Shown piece by piece: positions 39,454 through 63,765 of a stretch of 64,000 bases of DNA (position 1 is its first letter; the number at the start of each line of letters is the position of its first letter). Origin of the DNA: Sphingobacteriales bacterium. Lineage in GTDB: Bacteria > Bacteroidota > Bacteroidia > Chitinophagales > JADIYW01. A program made the translations under genes and the position numbers. A model generated the notes under the pieces. The model was not told the origin of the DNA and did not search any database. It was given only the letters and a program-made list of their open reading frames with translations. Location of the stretch: positions 94,076-158,075 of the forward strand of contig JADJYT010000002.1 of NCBI GenBank assembly GCA_016719635.1. The letters are read 5' to 3'.

Positions 39454-39957
39454 ATGAATCTGGAACAGGACATAAAACAGTTAGCATCCAATGCCCTGAA
39501 AAACAAGAAAGCGCATCAGAAATTAATTACGGAGTTAAAGAAATTAAAACCGTTTGATGTCGACGAATTATTTCACACACAACATGAAGAGGTATTTGCA
39601 GAAACAGACTGCCTGCAATGTGCCAACTGCTGCAAAACCACACCGCCGTTATTGCTGAATGAAGACATCAATCGCATCAGTAAAGCGTTGAATATTCCTG
39701 TAAAAAGGATGATGGTGGAATATGTTGTCCGCGATGCAGAAGGCGACCTGGTTTTCAACCAAACCCCCTGCCCGTTTCTGGGAAAGGATAATTACTGCAC
39801 CATCTATGATGTTCGTCCGAATGCCTGCCGGGAATATCCGCATACCAACCGAAAGAAAATGCACCATATCCTGGATTTAACGGTTACCAACGCCGGCATC
39901 TGCCCGGCTGTAGTGAAAATACTGGATAACATACAGGCTACCCTGCTTTCCGACTGA
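39454..39957 (+). CDS. YkgJ-family cysteine-cluster protein
   Basis: 'CLQCANCCK', 'CPFL....YCTIYDVRPNACREYP'. Confidence 0.8.
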   Translation: MNLEQDIKQLASNALKNKKAHQKLITELKKLKPFDVDELFHTQHEEVFAETDCLQCANCCKTTPPLLLNEDINRISKALNIPVKRMMVEYVVRDAEGDLVFNQTPCPFLGKDNYCTIYDVRPNACREYPHTNRKKMHHILDLTVTNAGICPAVVKILDNIQATLLSD

Positions 39958-40081
39958 AACGATTTTCTGTTTAAAATCTGACTATTTACGGATGATTACT
40001 GACCGACAAGGGCAATGACGGATACCCTACGCATTGACTGCCTGACCTAAAATACAAGCGCCTGTTTAGAATTAAACTCCA

Positions 40082-40147
40082 TTCACTCACTGATTTTTCC
40101 ATTTACTCACCGTATTCCATATCATCGAGATACAGGATATACCTTTA
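40082..40147 (+). promoter_or_regulatory. promoter-like module copy 1: tandem boxes TTCACTCA (40082-40089) and TTTACTCA (40102-40109) plus a -7-like TAccTTTA (40140-40147)
   Basis: Same box-box-promoter layout as copies 2-4. The downstream leader AAACCATAAAACTAGG (40181-40196) matches the AAACCATAAA(A)CTATG leaders of copies 2 and 4, but has AGG in place of ATG. Confidence 0.4.
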
Positions 40148-40220
40148 CAGCATCAAACAAACAAAAACCATAAACAACTGAAACCATAAAACTAGGAAAA
40201 CCACTTAACCATGGAAACGA

Positions 40221-40260
40221 CCTTGTCTGCACAGCATTTGCAGGCAAGGTTAATTCTTAT
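40221..40260 (+). terminator. hairpin terminator between convergent units
   Basis: 11-bp stem ccttgtctgca/tgcaggcaagg with one G-U pair, 7-nt loop, then T-rich ttaattcttatt. It lies just 3' of the minus-strand regulator stop at 40268. Confidence 0.55.
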
Positions 40261-40267
40261 TAGAATT

Positions 40268-40777
40268 TTATTTCGCAAACAATTTTAGAATCTTATCCCA
40301 GAACCAGTTTTCCTCCGCTTTGAAAATGCCTTCTATCAGCCTGTCTACATTCAACGCCAGGCGGTGCACATCTTTCACCATCTTTTGGAAATGTTTCATT
40401 TCCTCCGTCTTGGGAAGATTGTCTATCTGTTTGATTTCTTCCAGTAGCTTCAGTATCGGGTCCAGTTCACGCGTTTTTCGGATTTTAGCGACCTGCTTCG
40501 CAATCTTCCATACATCTTTCTCTCCCACAAAGTAGTCCCGGCGTTCCCCATGTTTAAACACCTTGCTCACCAATCCCCAGTCAATCAGTTCGCGGATATT
40601 CATATTCACATTTCCTCTCGAAATGGCCAGCTCTTCCATGATATCCTCCGTGCTGAGTTCTTCTCCGGAGACCATCATCAGCGCATGTATCTGCGCCATC
40701 GTCTTATTGATTCCCCATTGCGAGCCGAGGGCACCCCACGCCTGCACAAACTGCCGTTTTGCTTCTTTTACATTCAT
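40268..40777 (-). CDS. GbsR/MarR-type winged-helix transcriptional regulator
   Basis: 169 aa. 'MAQIHALMMVSGEELSTEDIMEELAISRGNVNMNIRELIDWGLV' is a wHTH pattern typical of GbsR-like regulators. Confidence 0.7.
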   Translation of the reverse strand: MNVKEAKRQFVQAWGALGSQWGINKTMAQIHALMMVSGEELSTEDIMEELAISRGNVNMNIRELIDWGLVSKVFKHGERRDYFVGEKDVWKIAKQVAKIRKTRELDPILKLLEEIKQIDNLPKTEEMKHFQKMVKDVHRLALNVDRLIEGIFKAEENWFWDKILKLFAK

Positions 40778-40866
40778 ATCTCAAATATAATCATTACTTT
40801 ATAACTTTCAATAACTTCTGAAAATTTGAGTACAAAATCCATTTAATCAATATTTATCCCGAATTC

Positions 40867-40927
40867 TCACTCAAAACGACCGCTTACTCATTTACTTGAT
40901 TTAAATCAAAGATACCACGTAACATTG
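40867..40927 (+). promoter_or_regulatory. promoter-like module copy 2: boxes TCACTCA (40867-40873) and TTACTCA (40884-40890), perfect palindrome TTGATTTAAATCAA (40896-40909, containing the -33 TTG), and -7-like TAacATTG (40920-40927)
   Basis: Read directly from the sequence. GACCGCTTACTCA is shared exactly with copy 3. Confidence 0.5.
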
Positions 40928-40933
40928 AAGAAG

Positions 40934-41050
40934 AAAAAATTACCATAAACAAACCATAAAACTATGATTAACCTCTTCTTCTAACAATCATAGTGATTTT
41001 AATAATTCTTAGTTGCGTGTAGCTTGGGTGCAATGCCCGGGCTTTTTTTT
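40934..41050 (+). ncRNA. candidate small RNA or leader of about 115 nt (boundaries approximate)
   Basis: Predicted start about 7 nt after the -7 box. An 8-bp hairpin ctatgatt/aatcatag (40962-40969 pairs with 40986-40993) buries the ATG of a 6-codon mini-ORF (40964-40984, MINLFF*). The 16-nt loop is CU-rich. Ends at the terminator 41021-41050. Confidence 0.35.
41021..41050 (+). terminator. rho-independent terminator
   Basis: Stem agcttggg/cccgggct (8 bp including 2 G-U pairs), loop tgcaatg, followed by T8. Confidence 0.75.
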
Positions 41051-41055
41051 GCCTT

Positions 41056-41120
41056 TTACTCAACTAAATGACCGCTTACTCAGCAGCTTTGCCAATTCAA
41101 GACCGGGTTGATTAGATTTA
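41056..41120 (+). promoter_or_regulatory. promoter-like module copy 3: boxes TTACTCA (41056-41062 and 41076-41082, 20 nt apart), -33 TTTG (41088-41091), -7-like TAgaTTTA (41113-41120)
   Basis: Read directly. The spacing from the second box to the -33 element (5 nt) is the same as in copy 2. Confidence 0.45.
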
Positions 41121-41126
41121 GACTCA

Positions 41127-41193
41127 GAGTCATCATTTTCATAGAAGATGATATTTAGTTCATCCGCCGCACTTTTTTAAGTGCGGTTTTTTT
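41127..41193 (+). ncRNA. candidate small RNA of about 65 nt (boundaries approximate)
   Basis: Lies between module copy 3 and the terminator 41167-41193. No ORF. Has a short internal hairpin (atcat/atgat). Confidence 0.3.
41167..41193 (+). terminator. rho-independent terminator
   Basis: Stem ccgcact/agtgcgg (7 bp), loop ttttta, followed by T7. Located 105 nt upstream of dnaE. Confidence 0.75.
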
Positions 41194-41298
41194 ATTTCAT
41201 TTTCAGCCTGTTAGACTGTTGAAAAATAAAAACTGCCGGTTCGGGGCTTTCAAGGCCTTTCTGTTGTATTTTTAAGTTTCACATTTTCTACCCATTTT

Positions 41299-44200
41299 AT
41301 GTGCGATTTTGCCCCCCTTCATTGTCATACGCAGTACTCACTGCTGGACGGCGCAGCCGATATTGATTCCATGATTAAAAAGGCAAAAGCGGACAATATG
41401 CCCGCCGTTGCCATCACCGACCACGGCAACATGTTCGGTGTCTTCAAGCATTTTGCCGCCTGCAAAAAACACGGTGTGAAGCCTATTCTAGGCTGCGAGG
41501 TATATGTGGTGGAAGACCGTTTTAATAAAAAATTCACCCGCGAACACAGAGATAAACGATTCCACCAGCTGTTGTTGGCAAAAAACGAAACCGGCTATAA
41601 AAACCTGATGAAGATCGTGTCGCAGGGGTTCATCGACGGTATCTATATGGATTTCCCACGCGTGGACAGGGAACTGATCAAACAATATAAAGAAGGTATT
41701 ATTGCCACCACCTGTTGTATCGGAGCGGAAGTGCCGCAAACGATGATTTCAAAAGGGGTGGAAGCTGCGGAAAAAGTGTTTCTGGAATGGCTCGATATTT
41801 TCGGAGCGGATTATTACATCGAATTACAACGCCACGAAATTGACAATCTGGATGGCACCGGCTGGAGCCAGGAAGGCATCAACCAGGAGTTACTCAAATT
41901 CGCCGCAAAACACAAGGTGAAAGCCATTGCGACCAACGACTCGCACTATGTAGACCAGAAAGACAGCGAAGCGCATGATATTTTGCTGTGCCTCCAAACC
42001 GGCAAGGATTTCACTGACCCGGACCGCTTTAAGTTCCCGAACAATAAATTTTTCTTTAAGACGCAGTTTGAAATGAAGGAACTCTTTAAGGATGTTCCGC
42101 AGGCGATTGAAAATACACTGGAAATCGTGGAAAAAGTTCAATCCCTGAACTTGCAAAGAGATGTGCTCCTCCCCGCCTTTCAGCTGCCGGTTGGTTTCAA
42201 GGACCAAAATGAATACCTGAAATTTCTTACATTTGAAGGAGCACGCAGACGATGGGGTGAAATTTTACCCATCGACATTATCGACCGTCTGGACTTCGAG
42301 TTGAAAACCATTGAAAAGATGGGATTCCCGGGTTACTTCTTAATCGTGCAGGATTTCATCAATGAAGGCAGAAAGATGGGTGTTTCCATCGGGCCGGGCA
42401 GAGGTTCCGCAGCCGGTTCCGCAGTGGCATTTGCCATCGGCATTACAAATGTTGACCCCATCAAATACAACCTGCTCTTTGAGCGTTTCCTCAATCCCGA
42501 CCGGATTTCCATGCCGGATATAGATATTGATTTCGACGATGAAGGCAGGGAGCGCGTGATTAATTATGTCATCGATAAATACGGCAAAAACCAGGTGGCG
42601 CAAATTATCACCTACGGCACCATGGCGGCAAAAAGCTCCATCAAAGATGTGGGACGTGTGTTGAAAGTGCCTTTATCCGAAACGGATAAAATGTCCAAGC
42701 TGGTGCCGGAGCGCCCGAAAATCACGCTGGCAGATGCCTATAAGGAAGTGGAAGAACTGCGCAGCTACCGTACTCTGGAAGAAAGCGATATGCGCTTTAA
42801 GACACTGAAACTGGCGGAAAACCTGGAAGGTTCCATCCGCAACAGAGGCATCCATGCATCCGCCGTCATCATCGCGCCGGACGACATCGTAAATTATGTA
42901 CCGGTCTGTACCGCCAAGGACGCTGATTTACTGGTCACCCAGTTTGACGGCAACATCATTGAACAGGCCGGCATGCTGAAGATGGATTTTCTGGGGTTGA
43001 AAACCCTGACCATCCTGAGAGATGCCCTGCGTTTGATTGAAAAGAATCACGGCATTAAAATCAGCCTGGATGAAATCCCTTTAGACGATAAAAAAACATT
43101 TGAACTCTATCAGCACGGCGATACCATCGGCACGTTCCAGTTTGAAAGCCCGGGGATGCAAAAACACCTAAGGGATCTCAGGCCGGATAAATTTGACGAT
43201 CTGATTGCTATGAATGCACTCTACCGCCCGGGCCCGATGAGCTATATTCCGAAATTTATTAACCGAAAACACGGCAGGGAAAAAATTCAGTATGATTTGC
43301 CGCAGATGGAAGAATACCTGCAGGAAACCTACGGCATTACCGTCTATCAGGAGCAGGTGATGTTGTTGTCGCAGAAACTGGCCGGCTTTTCCAAGGGCAA
43401 AGCGGACGAGTTGCGTAAAGCGATGGGCAAGAAAGACAGAGCCAAATTAGATTCGCTGAAACCGCTTTATGTCGAAGGATGCAAAGCCAATAATCTCAAT
43501 GAAGAGATATGCCTGAAAATATGGGTGGACTGGGAAAAATTTGCGGAATACGCTTTCAACAAATCGCATTCCACCTGTTATGCATTCGTCGCTTTCCAGA
43601 CCGCGTACCTGAAAGCGCACTATCCTGCGGAATATATGGCGTCCGTATTATCGCACAACATGAGCGACATCAAACAGATCAATTTCTTCCTGAGTGAATG
43701 CCGAAGAATGGGCGTCCCTACACTGGGGCCGGATATCAACGAGAGCGATGTGAAGTTTTCCGTCAATAAAGCCGGTGAAATACGTTTTGCCCTCTCCGCT
43801 ATCAAGGGTGTGGGTGAAGCCGCCGTTACGGATATCATCATCGAACGGGAAAAGGAAGGCGCATTTAAAAATATTTTTGATTTAACGAGACGCGTAAACT
43901 CCCGTACCGTCAATAAAAAGAATATTGAGGCACTGGCACAGGCAGGTGCTTTTGACAGCTTCCAGAATGTTCACCGTGCGCAATATTTTCATGTGTACAA
44001 GGACAATTCCTCTTTCATAGAGCTTGCCATAAAATTCGGCAATAATGTGAAAGAACAAAATTCGTCCACCGCCTTTTCACTGTTCGGCGATACCATCGAT
44101 GCGCAAATACCAGAACCGGAAATACCACATGCCAATCCGTGGCAGCCATTTGAAAAGTTGCAGCGCGAAAAGGAAGTGATTGGCATTTATATTTCCGGGC

Positions 44201-62471: not shown

Positions 62472-62505
62472 GTTGATTCGTACATTTTAGCTTCCTTCTT
62501 ACCGT

Positions 62506-62570
62506 TTACGCAGTAAAACATCCCGTTTACTCATTATTTCTTGACCTAAATCAAGAAATATGCAACTTTG
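62506..62570 (+). promoter_or_regulatory. promoter-like module copy 4: boxes TTACGCA (62506-62512) and TTACTCA (62527-62533), TTGACCTAAATCAA (62541-62554), -7-like CAacTTTG (62563-62570)
   Basis: Same layout as copies 1-3. The leader AAACCATAAACTATG ends at the start codon 62599. Confidence 0.5.
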
Positions 62571-62598
62571 GTGTACCAAGCCACTAAAACCATAAACT

Positions 62599-63024
62599 AT
62601 GAAAAAGCTATTATTTCTAATGTGTTTCGCAACGATGGGAGTTACAGCATTAGCCGCACGAAAGAATGACGCACAGAATCCCGTTGTCGGTAGCTGGAAA
62701 TTCAGCAGACAAAGCAATCAGAATGAATTCCGGAAAGTAATGGCCAATGATGCCAGTAAAGACTACCAGTCGGAATATTTCATATTTGAAGGTGATAACA
62801 AATTCCGGCATGAATTTGTAAACGAAAAGGGAGTCATTGTTAAAGTACTCAAGGGTAAATGGAAAACCACCGGCGATAAAATAAAAATCGATTACAGTGA
62901 CATCGATTACAACCTGACCATCAGCTATTTCTTTCTGGACAATGACCTGGTTCTCGGACAAAATTTCAATCACGTGATATTTTCCAAAGACAATACGGAA
63001 AATCAGAACTACGCTTTAAAATAA
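62599..63024 (+). CDS. lipocalin-like small secreted protein
   Basis: Signal peptide 'MKKLLFLMCFATMGVTALAA'. 'VVGSWKF' and 'KGKWKTTGDKIKIDY' are patterns typical of bacterial lipocalin-like domains. Confidence 0.6.
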   Translation: MKKLLFLMCFATMGVTALAARKNDAQNPVVGSWKFSRQSNQNEFRKVMANDASKDYQSEYFIFEGDNKFRHEFVNEKGVIVKVLKGKWKTTGDKIKIDYSDIDYNLTISYFFLDNDLVLGQNFNHVIFSKDNTENQNYALK

Positions 63025-63057
63025 TCTGTTCCCACACTTCAATTACCTTTAAAGCGG

Positions 63058-63089
63058 AAGAAGACTGACGATGTTCAGTCTTCTTTTTT
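63058..63089 (+). terminator. rho-independent terminator
   Basis: 11-bp stem aagaagactga/tcagtcttctt, 6-nt loop, followed by a T run. Confidence 0.8.
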
Positions 63090-63291
63090 ATATCACACTT
63101 TCATTTTTTATTGAAAGTTCTAAAATATTTACATACTTGGATTTAACACGCCTCCCTTAAAATGAGGGCTAATTTTACGTTCCGGTAATATACCGTATCC
63201 GTTTGTTTCGGGAAGTTTAATATTCACATTGGATTAACCTGACATTTACACCAAGTACATTTTTATATCAAACTTTCGTAATTGGAATAAG

Positions 63292-63323
63292 TTGACAAAC
63301 ATCAATGATCGGGTATATCTTTG
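63292..63323 (+). promoter_or_regulatory. Bacteroidota-type promoter: TTGACA at 63292-63297 and TAtcTTTG at 63316-63323
   Basis: Matches the TAnnTTTG -7 consensus, about 38 nt upstream of the ATG at 63361. Confidence 0.5.
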
Positions 63324-63360: not shown

Positions 63361-63765
63361 ATGGAATTCGCACAAAAATTCAAAGACGCAGTAGACAGTT
63401 TTACTGCAGAAACAAAAGCAAACGTAACGGAATTACGTTACAACGTGGAAAACACTGTTAAAAATGCGGTGAGTGAAGCAAAAGAAGAAGTGGAGTTACA
63501 AAAAAATCACCTTAAAACAACATCTGAAAGAATTCAGTCCAAACTGAAAGGACCTTTCACCGTGGAAAAAATCCAGTCTGATGTTAAAGAAGAAGCTGAA
63601 ATTTTAGTAGCAGACCTTAAAACAACCCTCAACAGGAATGCTGACAGGGTAAAAGGTTTATTCAACCACGCTTCTGAAAAAATCGAACAACAAGTGGAAG
63701 AAGTTAAAGCTGAAGTAAAAAAAGCTACTTCTAAAGCAAAAGCAAGAGTAGAAAAGGCTGCGTAA
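63361..63765 (+). CDS. hypothetical all-helical protein (apolipoprotein/phasin-like composition)
   Basis: 134 aa, Lys/Glu/Ala-rich, with heptad-like periodicity. A promoter lies upstream and a terminator downstream. Confidence 0.6.
   Translation: MEFAQKFKDAVDSFTAETKANVTELRYNVENTVKNAVSEAKEEVELQKNHLKTTSERIQSKLKGPFTVEKIQSDVKEEAEILVADLKTTLNRNADRVKGLFNHASEKIEQQVEEVKAEVKKATSKAKARVEKAA

Follow-up and report, generated by a model that had tools for sequence, protein, structure and literature searches.

Tandem-box promoter modules in a Chitinophagales genome precede small RNAs and a lipocalin-like gene and are probably bound by a LytTR-type activator

Four sites in the window, i.e. the whole 64-kb stretch of DNA analysed here, are probably activator-dependent promoters whose tandem boxes are bound by a LytTR-family response regulator and which together form a small regulon; we give this reading a probability of roughly two in three. 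The sites have one common and statistically distinct architecture, they are conserved across genomes, and in other Bacteroidota the same module is associated with LytS/LytTR genes. This genomic context supports a LytTR-type response regulator as the best candidate activator. The regulon in the window would comprise a short unit behind copy 1, small RNA A behind copy 2, small RNA B behind copy 3 and a lipocalin-like secreted protein behind copy 4. The first-pass annotation had arrived at a similar overall picture, and its promoter modules of a small regulon under a LytTR-type activator are retained here, while the role that it gave to the adjacent wHTH regulator is not.

The module consists of two 12-mer direct repeats with the consensus ACCGyTTACTCA and a period of 20-21 bp. 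For the search, a weight matrix of 14 columns was derived from 21 modules, all of them outside this genome and two from one closely related genome, and box pairs 20-22 bp apart were looked for. Exactly four pair matches were obtained in the 64 kb, all on the plus strand and in the orientation of a downstream unit, at 40077, 40857, 41050 and 62500, compared to a single match in total over 20 shuffled windows (0.05 per shuffle). The box pair thus exceeds chance, and the four-site layout proposed beforehand is real: all sites are found where they had been placed, and a matrix built from other genomes returns just these four. The tandem arrangement itself stood, with two corrections: the spacing is 20-21 bp instead of 17-21, and the unit is a 12-mer that starts with (A)CCG instead of a 7-mer. 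The heptamer TTACTCA alone shows no enrichment in the window (9 matches vs. 7.2 expected) and was ruled out as the enriched unit. Enrichment is confined to the longer box and the pair; CCRYTTACTCA with at most one mismatch has 11 matches vs. 3.1 expected, a count that none of 100 shuffles reached; eight of these matches fall inside the four sites.

Housekeeping promoters of the Bacteroidota follow the consensus -33 TTTG / -7 TAnnTTTG. The -7 boxes of copies 1 to 4 (TACCTTTA, TAACATTG, TAGATTTA and CAACTTTG) conform to it, and in all four copies the -7 box starts 29-30 nt past the proximal box. The proximal box ends 5-7 nt ahead of the -33 TTG, which is located 19-21 nt ahead of the -7 box in copies 2 and 4; copy 3 has a TTTG-like element and copy 1 has none. 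LytTR-type sites are imperfect direct repeats of about 9-12 bp that recur every 20-23 bp or so; the four copies, like 62 non-identical modules from other loci, have 12-mers with a 20-21 bp period, and these abut the -35-equivalent element at a fixed phase. The distal boxes of copies 1 and 3 are weak (4.0 and 5.8 bits). As proposed beforehand, GACCGCTTACTCA is common to copies 2 and 3, and the copies have a leader in common: AACCATAAA occurs five times in the window, four of these in module leaders.

At each site, a promoter of the Bacteroidota housekeeping kind (-33 TTG / -7 TAnnTTTG) would depend on an activator. The 20-21 bp period puts both repeats on the same side of the helix, and their centres fall near -69 and -48 relative to a start predicted 5-8 nt past the -7 box. 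A dimer of a LytTR-family protein would bind the two boxes and recruit or stabilise RNA polymerase, which would explain the fixed distance of 29-30 nt from the proximal box to the -7 box and also why copies 1 and 3 can dispense with a -33 element. In this mechanism, we infer the binding of a LytTR protein, activation instead of repression, and the transcription starts.

Conservation in related genomes, which the first-pass annotation had named as a test of its proposal, is evident. Boxes and transcripts are conserved in genomes of the Chitinophagales and Saprospirales while the spacers have diverged, and the same holds for two lineages with identical GbsR-like regulator proteins, in which the -7 boxes are kept as well. 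The module is still present in relatives whose GbsR-like regulator is 74-86% identical. For 46 of the 62 non-identical modules, a match of at least 5 of 6 positions to TAnnTTTG begins precisely 29 or 30 nt behind the proximal box; any other offset accounts for at most three modules. A metagenome scan with TTACTCAN{8,9}ACCGYTYACTCA yielded 56 matches, and 29 of them carry the prefix ACCGY on box 1, which the pattern does not demand. In relatives, modules also precede small lipoprotein genes and other genes for secreted proteins.

The proposal of a LytTR-type activator is backed by this architecture and by the genomic context in other Bacteroidota. At eight metagenome loci, which represent about five independent groups, a gene with a LytTR domain is located directly upstream of the module on the same strand, and six of these were confirmed as Response_reg plus LytTR. 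The order is regulator, kinase, module in L094, L123, L125 and L146, where the kinases have the domains Reg_prop/Y_Y_Y/His_kinase (PF06580). In L096, L100, L126 and L132, the module comes right after the regulator; in L139, only the kinase is seen. The adjacency in L132 counts for little, since the orthologous loci L149 and L150 have the small RNA and no boxes. No LytTR ORF was detected by jackhmmer on six-frame ORFs of the window and 92 other loci, none by Pfam, applied to every window ORF of 220-255 aa and to the near neighbours, and none in the 20-kb locus of the sister genome; two Saprospirales loci with the module (L033 and L051) have no two-component genes among their neighbours. Sphingobacteriaceae and unassigned contigs, rather than this Chitinophagales clade, supply most of the LytTR context. 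In a motif-independent test, three orthologous regulator-kinase loci (L151-L153) of cultured Sphingobacteriaceae were picked by protein similarity only. Desertivirga arenae and Pedobacter namyangjuensis have a module above the matrix threshold at or just past the kinase stop codon, and Arcticibacter pallidicorallinus has a sub-threshold module with a degenerate box 2 that keeps the 21-bp spacing and the 30 nt to the -7 box. All three modules precede a terminated non-coding unit. Adjacency and conserved gene order fall short of proof of regulation.

The boxes might instead be bound by an activator of another family, of AraC/XylS, LuxR/GerE or OmpR type, with the LytTR genes as mere syntenic neighbours. 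We regard this as unlikely. AraC and XylS half-sites, too, typically recur every 21 bp beside the -35 region, and GerE-domain proteins of about 239 aa are encoded downstream of modules in L102, L116, L133 and L134, possibly as a case of autoregulation. A Pfam census of 123 ORFs that lie no more than 3.5 kb from 36 modules, however, gave as the commonest families Reg_prop 6, Response_reg 6, LytTR 6, His_kinase 5 and Y_Y_Y 5, and the only other DNA-binding family with at least two members was GerE, whose four members are all downstream targets. DNA-binding domains of AraC or OmpR type, HTH_18 included, stayed below two members near these modules. The GerE proteins are found downstream only and in one low-GC group only, whereas an upstream LytTR gene is seen in about five independent groups as well as all three loci picked by protein. 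Furthermore, the conserved box measures 12 bp, compared to AraC-type sites of 17-20 bp and half-sites of 15-20 bp.

A LytTR-type activator is also in good agreement with the architecture of known systems. In Clostridium perfringens, a LytTR response regulator binds the VirR boxes, a pair of imperfect direct repeats that measure about 12 bp each and share one helical face, and the targets of VirS/VirR include the regulatory RNAs VR-RNA, VirT and VirU as well as secreted proteins. Our modules resemble them in repeat size, in the single helix face, in the fixed promoter-proximal position and in having both RNA and secreted-protein targets; they differ in box sequence and phylum, use a Bacteroidota -33/-7 promoter, and their binding by LytTR is predicted. 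The lytSR-lrgAB locus of Firmicutes likewise has two-component genes followed by the regulated promoter, as in L094, L123, L125, L146 and L151-L153, but the target here is a short non-coding unit and not a holin-like operon, and the modules of the window adjoin no two-component gene. For YehT (BtsR) of E. coli, the consensus is reportedly ACC[G/A]CT[C/T]A with a 13-bp spacer. The BtsR site in the yjiY/btsT promoter has the same 21-bp period, its ACC(G/A)CT(T/C)A corresponds to the first eight box positions here, and the system also employs a LytS-type kinase (PF06580). In contrast, the last four box positions (CTCA) are not in common, the regulated gene in E. coli, which encodes a pyruvate transporter, does not adjoin the two-component genes, and the kinases found here have periplasmic Reg_prop/Y_Y_Y sensor domains instead of 5TM-Lyt. 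Since the members of the LytTR family have no conserved recognition sequence in common, the match to the BtsR site may be due to chance. The oligonucleotide used for the YehT/BtsR site was GACCGCTTAC..N..AACCACTCA, with a 21-bp period (PMC4847170). LytTR sites in general are described as two repeats of 9-11 nt, 11-13 nt apart (PMC4847170), a description with which the AgrA sites of Staphylococcus aureus (P2/P3, RNAIII) agree. The latter, two direct repeats bound by a LytTR regulator, share with our modules the period of about 21 bp, the location next to the -35 region and a regulatory RNA as output. Unlike the boxes here, AgrA repeats are 9 bp long with spacers of 12-13 bp, and AgrA is part of a self-regulating peptide quorum-sensing circuit, while neither autoinducer genes nor modules upstream of regulator genes were seen at our loci.

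All promoter elements, transcripts and the target gene described in the following lie on the plus strand. Copy 1 has a weak distal box TCCATTCACTCA at 40078-40089 (matrix pair match at 40077, spacing 20, score 4.0), which is kept in the second lineage as TCCATTCGCTCA. Its proximal box TCCATTTACTCA at 40098-40109 is matched by both CCRYTTACTCA and the matrix (score 12.0) and is invariant in nine close relatives, while the flanks diverge. The -7 box at 40140-40147 starts 30 nt after the proximal box without a -33 TTG; ATATACCTTTAC at this position is kept between lineages, and the preceding 27 nt are not. The short transcript (40153-40262, with a predicted start) combines the leader AAACCATAAAACTAGG with a 13-bp hairpin (40219-40251), shows a fold z-score of -4.3 and converges on the 3' end of the GbsR-like regulator gene. 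The unit driven by copy 1 is short and probably decaying. A 25-codon ORF behind it was rejected as a conserved peptide: it is frame-shifted in the sister lineage and therefore probably non-coding. In L087, the position of copy 1 holds a module and a gene for a 49-aa lipoprotein. That copies 1 to 3 drive short terminated non-coding units and not genes had escaped the first-pass annotation.

In copy 2, the distal box CCCGAATTCTCA is located at 40858-40869 (score 14.1), and CCGAATTCTCA at 40859-40869 is the conserved form, 21 bp before the proximal box; the orthologous boxes of 16 genomes read ACCGAATaCTmA. The TCACTCA at 40867, previously taken for the box, is in the wrong register, because relatives show AACTGA or AAGTCA there. 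A possible third, distal box TCCATTTAATCA (40838-40849, a one-mismatch match) lies 20 bp before the distal box; weak counterparts occur at the equivalent position in L013, L040, L082 and L083, and it is not kept in the sister lineage. The proximal box ACCGCTTACTCA at 40879-40890 (score 22.6) is kept in all orthologues. It is followed by the palindrome TTGATTTAAATCAA at 40896-40909, which holds the -33 TTG, and, 29 nt after the proximal box, by the -7 box at 40920-40927. This 14-bp palindrome, like its relative at 62541-62554 in copy 4, had been noted beforehand and was found again.

Small RNA A, of about 120 nt (40925-41051; covariance model 121 bits, E 7e-23), has 16 orthologues, all between the GbsR-like gene and dnaE. 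Its 5' part is A/C-rich with two ACCATAAA(A)C motifs and is followed by a variable hairpin, an invariant AATAATTCTTAGTTGCGTGT, and a terminator at 41021-41043 with a T8 run, in which three stem pairs show compensatory changes. An ORF inside the RNA varies from 3 to 10 codons across genomes and its stop is lost in the sister lineage, so MINLFF behind copy 2 was discarded as a conserved peptide. The covariance model finds one copy in the window and six matches in other loci, two of them identical. It fails to detect the RNAs of copy 1, copy 3 and the kinase-adjacent units, and hence homology among these RNAs is unproven. With Rfam 15, no family reached the gathering score in the window, the region 39950-41310 gave only chance-level matches with E above 0.6, and the kinase-adjacent units had no match. 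Similar ..CUUAGU/CUAAGU.. motifs are seen in small RNA A and in the copy 1, copy 3 and kinase-adjacent RNAs.

The distal box of copy 3, GCCTTTTACTCA at 41051-41062 (score 5.8), overlaps the tail end of the small RNA A terminator, and the same layout behind small RNA A is found in L039/L101 and L114/L140. The proximal box at 41071-41082 has the same 12-mer as that of copy 2 (score 20.5) and has decayed to CCGAACTCTCA or CCGAACACTCA in the sister lineage, where the -7 box (41113-41120, 30 nt after the proximal box) is kept. Small RNA B, of about 70 nt (41124-41194), carries the motif ATTTAGTTC besides two hairpins, has a terminator (41166-41187) plus a T7 run, and shows a fold z-score of -6.9. 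Related units ending with ATTTAGTT and a terminator occur in L039 and L114/L140.

Copy 4 has its distal box ACCGTTTACGCA at 62501-62512 (score 15.8, with orthologues in L053 and L064), its proximal box CCCGTTTACTCA at 62522-62533 (score 18.8), a -33 element TTGACCTAAATCAA at 62541-62554 with an imperfect palindrome, and a -7 box at 62563-62570, 29 nt after the proximal box; GCAACTTTG at the latter is kept in L030, L053 and L064. The target gene (62599-63024) encodes 141 aa with a signal-peptide-like N-terminus and a Lipocalin_4 domain (PF13648, E 2.3e-5). It forms a monocistronic unit that has a terminator of its own near 63057-63090. Orthologues follow ddl in five genomes, and all five have the module; L030 carries two tandem paralogues with one module each.

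The wHTH regulator of GbsR/MarR type (40268-40777) had been proposed to act at the palindrome TTGAyyTAAATCAA. It probably does not, and we consider it very improbable that this protein acts on the module at all, be it at the palindrome or at the boxes. Copies 1 to 3 flank its gene, small RNA A adjoins the gene in 16 of 16 genomes that have this RNA, and those regulator-adjacent orthologues that were retrieved via the protein retain TTGAy-N4-ATCAA. However, the adjacency represents one inherited syntenic block (CxxCxxCC gene, regulator, RNA, dnaE), and modules also occur far from any such gene, after ddl, kinase genes or dnaE. The orthologues in L019 (65% identity) and L021 (60%) have neither module nor palindrome beside them, yet ACTTTCA-N8-TGAAAGT is kept. 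This different inverted repeat precedes the regulator gene in every orthologue, including those of 60-65% identity without a module, is found at 40804-40825 in the window, and is a candidate operator of the GbsR-like regulator. MarR-type dimers bind inverted repeats and would not be expected on direct repeats of a 21-bp period. TTGAC-N4-ATCAA is also the -33 region of a box-less promoter (63292-63305), and L105 is a copy 2 orthologue with boxes and without the palindrome; in copies 2 and 4, the TTGAy-N4-ATCAA that covers the -33 is an element of its own, which a module can lack. As with GbsR/MarR-type operators, the wHTH gene is preceded by a conserved inverted repeat, but this repeat differs from the element named beforehand. 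The function of GbsR-type proteins in Bacteroidetes is unknown (PMC6207618), and a putative operator for these uncharacterised regulators is a side yield of the analysis.

That the similarity is purely inherited, from a promoter and leader duplicated without a common regulator or from a mobile or iteron-like repeat, is scarcely probable: the leader ACCATAAA..CTATG of copies 1, 2 and 4 indicates common ancestry, and the lipocalin paralogues of L030 with a module each and the arrays of three to four boxes in L103 and L122 point the same way, but boxes and distance are conserved while the sequence from box to -7 is not, modules precede unrelated genes in distant genomes of 29% to 48% GC, their position is syntenic and not scattered, and neither terminal repeats nor transposase genes are present.

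LytTR response regulators are numerous in Bacteroidota, yet the literature searched here does not describe the binding motif or a target of a single one. The module provides a box that can be put to the test, namely two copies of ACCGyTTACTCA with a period of 20-21 bp and 29-30 nt from the second copy to a -7 box, along with a predicted regulon, and adds at least two undescribed small-RNA families. Because the arrangement is present in the cultured Desertivirga arenae, Arcticibacter pallidicorallinus and Pedobacter namyangjuensis, the prediction is directly testable beyond metagenome-assembled genomes. A more far-reaching and speculative scenario, rather improbable when taken jointly, is a widespread LytS/LytTR family of the Bacteroidota with small RNAs as its main output, in which small RNA A acts on the lipocalin mRNA in a feed-forward loop. 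In this clade, small RNA A would then carry a copy of the regulon's leader and start codon, ACCAUAAAACUAUGA, held in a helix by the invariant UCUUAGUU, and could act on the lipocalin mRNA, with its start region AACUAUGA, either by pairing with it or by luring away, as a decoy, a factor that binds the leader.

The four sites are best explained as a putative LytTR-type, activator-dependent promoter module for small RNAs and small secreted proteins, and the finding is real and conserved. The window stems from an uncultured Bacteroidota genome, whose relatives are labelled Chitinophagales or Sphingobacteriales, depending on the source. All four tandem-box sites of the first-pass annotation were confirmed in the sequence. 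TTACTCA by itself is not enriched in the window (9 matches vs 7.2 expected); CCRYTTACTCA with at most one mismatch is enriched, with 11 matches vs 3.1 expected, a number reached in none of 100 shuffles. Eight of these 11 lie inside the four sites. Alignments of relatives define the module as two 12-mers, ACCGwwTaCTmA and ACCGyTTACTCA, with a spacing of 21 bp or, in some, 20 bp, followed 3' of the proximal box by TT, 3-5 nt, TTGAy-N4-ATCAA, about 10 nt and TAAnnTTG. Since they set the register, the distal box of copy 2 lies at 40858-40869, and its earlier placement at 40867 was out of register. A weight matrix was built from 21 of the modules found in a scan of other genomes (below), two of them from one closely related genome. 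In the window it retrieves precisely the four sites, all on the plus strand, and 20 shuffled controls gave one match in total. Arrays exceeding the usual box pair, with at least three to four tandem boxes (TGTACCGTTTACTCACACTTT repeated) at the same 21-bp period, occur in the foreign loci L103 (1315-1420) and L122 (275-340).

Among 62 non-identical modules, 46 carry a match to the -7 box TAnnTTTG (at least 5/6) that starts exactly 29 or 30 nt after the proximal box, and any other offset from 10 to 45 occurs in at most three modules each. All four window copies keep this rule, with or without the -33 TTG. That the modules are alike by mere inheritance is argued against by this fixed offset, which would be expected of an activator obliged to contact RNA polymerase from a set position.

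Conservation in related genomes, on which the annotation had made its proposal depend, was found at several distances. The regulator protein has an identical copy on CAZBED010000001.1 of GCA_964490845.1, and relatives with the identical protein form two DNA lineages, between which boxes, -7 boxes and transcripts are retained while the surrounding sequence is divergent and carries indels. Where regulator identity is 74-86%, the copy-2 module and its transcript still lie between the regulator gene and dnaE. A search for the proximal box together with the palindrome, in which each species was represented by a single genome, gave 71 matches, 23 of which have a distal box at -21, though it is absent from the pattern. 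All 23 belong to Chitinophagales, Sphingobacteriales or Saprospirales genomes; downstream are the same small RNA (small RNA A, 16 cases), lipocalin orthologues after ddl (five) or a lipoprotein gene (two). In L039, a second module and small RNA directly follow the first, as in the window. On foreign loci, the weight matrix also found palindrome-free modules, and it placed modules ahead of genes for a second paralogue of the lipocalin, a secreted protein of 580 aa and a lipoprotein of 49 aa; the lipoprotein gene has the same position as window copy 1.

Copies 1 to 3 lie between a CxxCxxCC-domain gene and dnaE (39958-41298), a region whose sole gene encodes the GbsR/MarR-type regulator (169 aa, minus strand, Pfam MarR_2). 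Each has a hairpin resembling a terminator about 100 nt further on (40219-40251 for copy 1, 41021-41043 with T8 for copy 2, 41166-41187 with T7 for copy 3), and thus they appear to drive short self-contained units rather than to serve as gene promoters. The gene downstream of copy 4 encodes a Lipocalin_4-domain protein of 141 aa whose N-terminus resembles a signal peptide, and it has a terminator of its own. Of the five occurrences of the leader ACCATAAA(A)C in the window, four fall in the module transcripts, which makes it specific to them.

The genome scan gave 16 orthologues of small RNA A (about 40925-41051). In its consensus fold, an invariant AACUAUGA around an AUG is predicted to pair with an invariant UCUUAGUU, and the terminator stem shows compensatory changes at three pairs. 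Starting at this AUG, the short ORF ranges from 3 to 10 codons and its sequences are unrelated, which makes a conserved peptide improbable. The start codon of the lipocalin mRNA lies in the same AACUAUGA (62593-62600), which suggests that small RNA A may target this mRNA or mimic its leader. The covariance model of small RNA A detects one window copy (121 bits) and six matches in other loci, two of these identical, but not copies 1 and 3 or the RNAs adjacent to kinase genes in foreign loci. Small RNA B (about 41124-41194) has a fold z of -6.9 vs shuffles and relatives in L039 and L114/L140. The copy 1 unit has the common leader with AGG in place of ATG; its hairpin is strong (z -4.3), its T-tail is weak, and we read it as a decaying or re-purposed unit. 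It points towards the regulator gene's 3' end and converges on the stop codon there, and its transcription may continue into that gene in antisense. The same regulator-to-CxxCxxCC gap (40153-40270), which in the window holds the short copy-1 unit only, carries a 130-aa gene plus a DCC1-like gene, the module-driven 49-aa lipoprotein gene, or nothing in relatives (L011, L087, L021). No Rfam family matches small RNA A, small RNA B, copy 1 or the kinase-adjacent units.

TTGAy-N4-ATCAA is found at four places in the window vs 0.8 matches expected (palindromes counted twice), three of them -33 regions of predicted promoters. The third, TTGACAAACATCAA at 63292-63305, belongs to the promoter of an apolipoprotein-like gene (134 aa, 63361-63765); this promoter lacks TTACTCA boxes, and the element, whose shape is that of copies 2 and 4, does not vary among six genomes. 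L105, an orthologue of the copy-2 promoter, has the boxes and no palindrome, and the two cases together mark the palindrome as an independent element. It would be either an operator for some other factor or an extended -33 element. The proposed action of the adjacent regulator at this palindrome is unsupported, as every GbsR-like orthologue examined has retained ACTTTCA-N8-TGAAAGT, a 7-8-7 inverted repeat that lies 30-55 nt ahead of the start codon (40804-40825 in the window), including the module-less L019 (65% identity) and L021 (Chryseolinea, 60%). A near-match recurs only once more in the window, at 63097-63118, in the gap that separates the lipocalin terminator from the following gene; all six genomes with that locus keep it. 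From these sequence patterns, this repeat, not TTGATTTAAATCAA, is likely the operator of the GbsR-like regulator. It also occurs 3' of the regulator gene in L011, L054, L056 and L087. In the literature, no function is known for GbsR-type proteins of Bacteroidetes (PMC6207618).

The best candidate binder of the boxes, judged from genomic context, is a LytTR response regulator. A metagenome scan with TTACTCAN{8,9}ACCGYTYACTCA gave 56 matches on contigs of 29-48% GC; in 29 the distal box bears the prefix ACCGY, which was no part of the pattern and marks them as real sites. When all six-frame ORFs of the window and the collected loci were searched with jackhmmer, LytTR domains appeared in eight loci only, all among the 56 matches, and none in the window. 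The LytTR gene is always immediately upstream of the module on the same strand, in the order regulator, kinase, module (L094, L123, L125, L146; L139 has the kinase only) or regulator, module (L096, L100, L126, L132). Pfam assigns Response_reg plus LytTR to six (L094, L096, L123, L125, L126, L146), a LytTR domain to L100 and L132, and Reg_prop/Y_Y_Y/His_kinase (PF06580, the LytS-type kinase domain) to the kinases. Among 123 ORFs lying no more than 3.5 kb from 36 modules, the top families are Reg_prop, Response_reg and LytTR (6 each), His_kinase and Y_Y_Y (5 each), followed by GerE and Por_Secre_tail (4 each), both among the downstream targets; DNA-binding domains of the AraC or OmpR type have fewer than two members each in this set.

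As a motif-independent test, orthologues of the L123 regulator were taken from three cultured Sphingobacteriaceae and their loci inspected. All three show the order regulator, kinase, intergenic region, scpB. The module opens the intergenic region above the matrix threshold in Desertivirga arenae and Pedobacter namyangjuensis; Arcticibacter pallidicorallinus has a degenerate proximal box, GCCGATAGCTCA, with the 21-bp spacing and the 30 nt to TATTATTG retained. A terminated non-coding unit comes next in all three. Known LytTR sites consist of two repeats of 9-11 nt with 11-13 nt between (PMC4847170). The E. coli YehT/BtsR site oligo, GACCGCTTACATCCCTAAAATAACCACTCAG (PMC4847170), has the same 21-bp period as the module and shares ACC(G/A)CT(T/C)A with box positions 1 to 8. 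In sum, this context makes a LytTR response regulator the leading candidate; the window itself encodes no such protein, and the adjacency seen in L132 does not recur in L149 and L150. The module would be a further example of an established type of system, and our literature searches found no such site described for its phylum, the Bacteroidota.

The kinase-adjacent units (L094, L123, L139, L151, L152; L125, L146) are conserved non-coding RNAs, e.g., ..UUUUAUCUAAGUGUGUGUUUAGCGG..CCGCUUUUUU; ahead of the terminator they carry ..CUAAGU.., which is similar to ..CUUAGUU.. in small RNA A, but the covariance model does not connect the two. In L093, L122, L098 and L113, the module drives genes for type IX secretion cargo (Por_Secre_tail), a protein with leucine-rich repeats and one with NHL repeats, so the regulon tends towards secreted and surface proteins. 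On the low-GC contigs L102, L116, L133 and L134, the module lies ahead of LuxR-type (GerE) proteins of about 239 aa without a receiver domain, three of them in tandem in L134.
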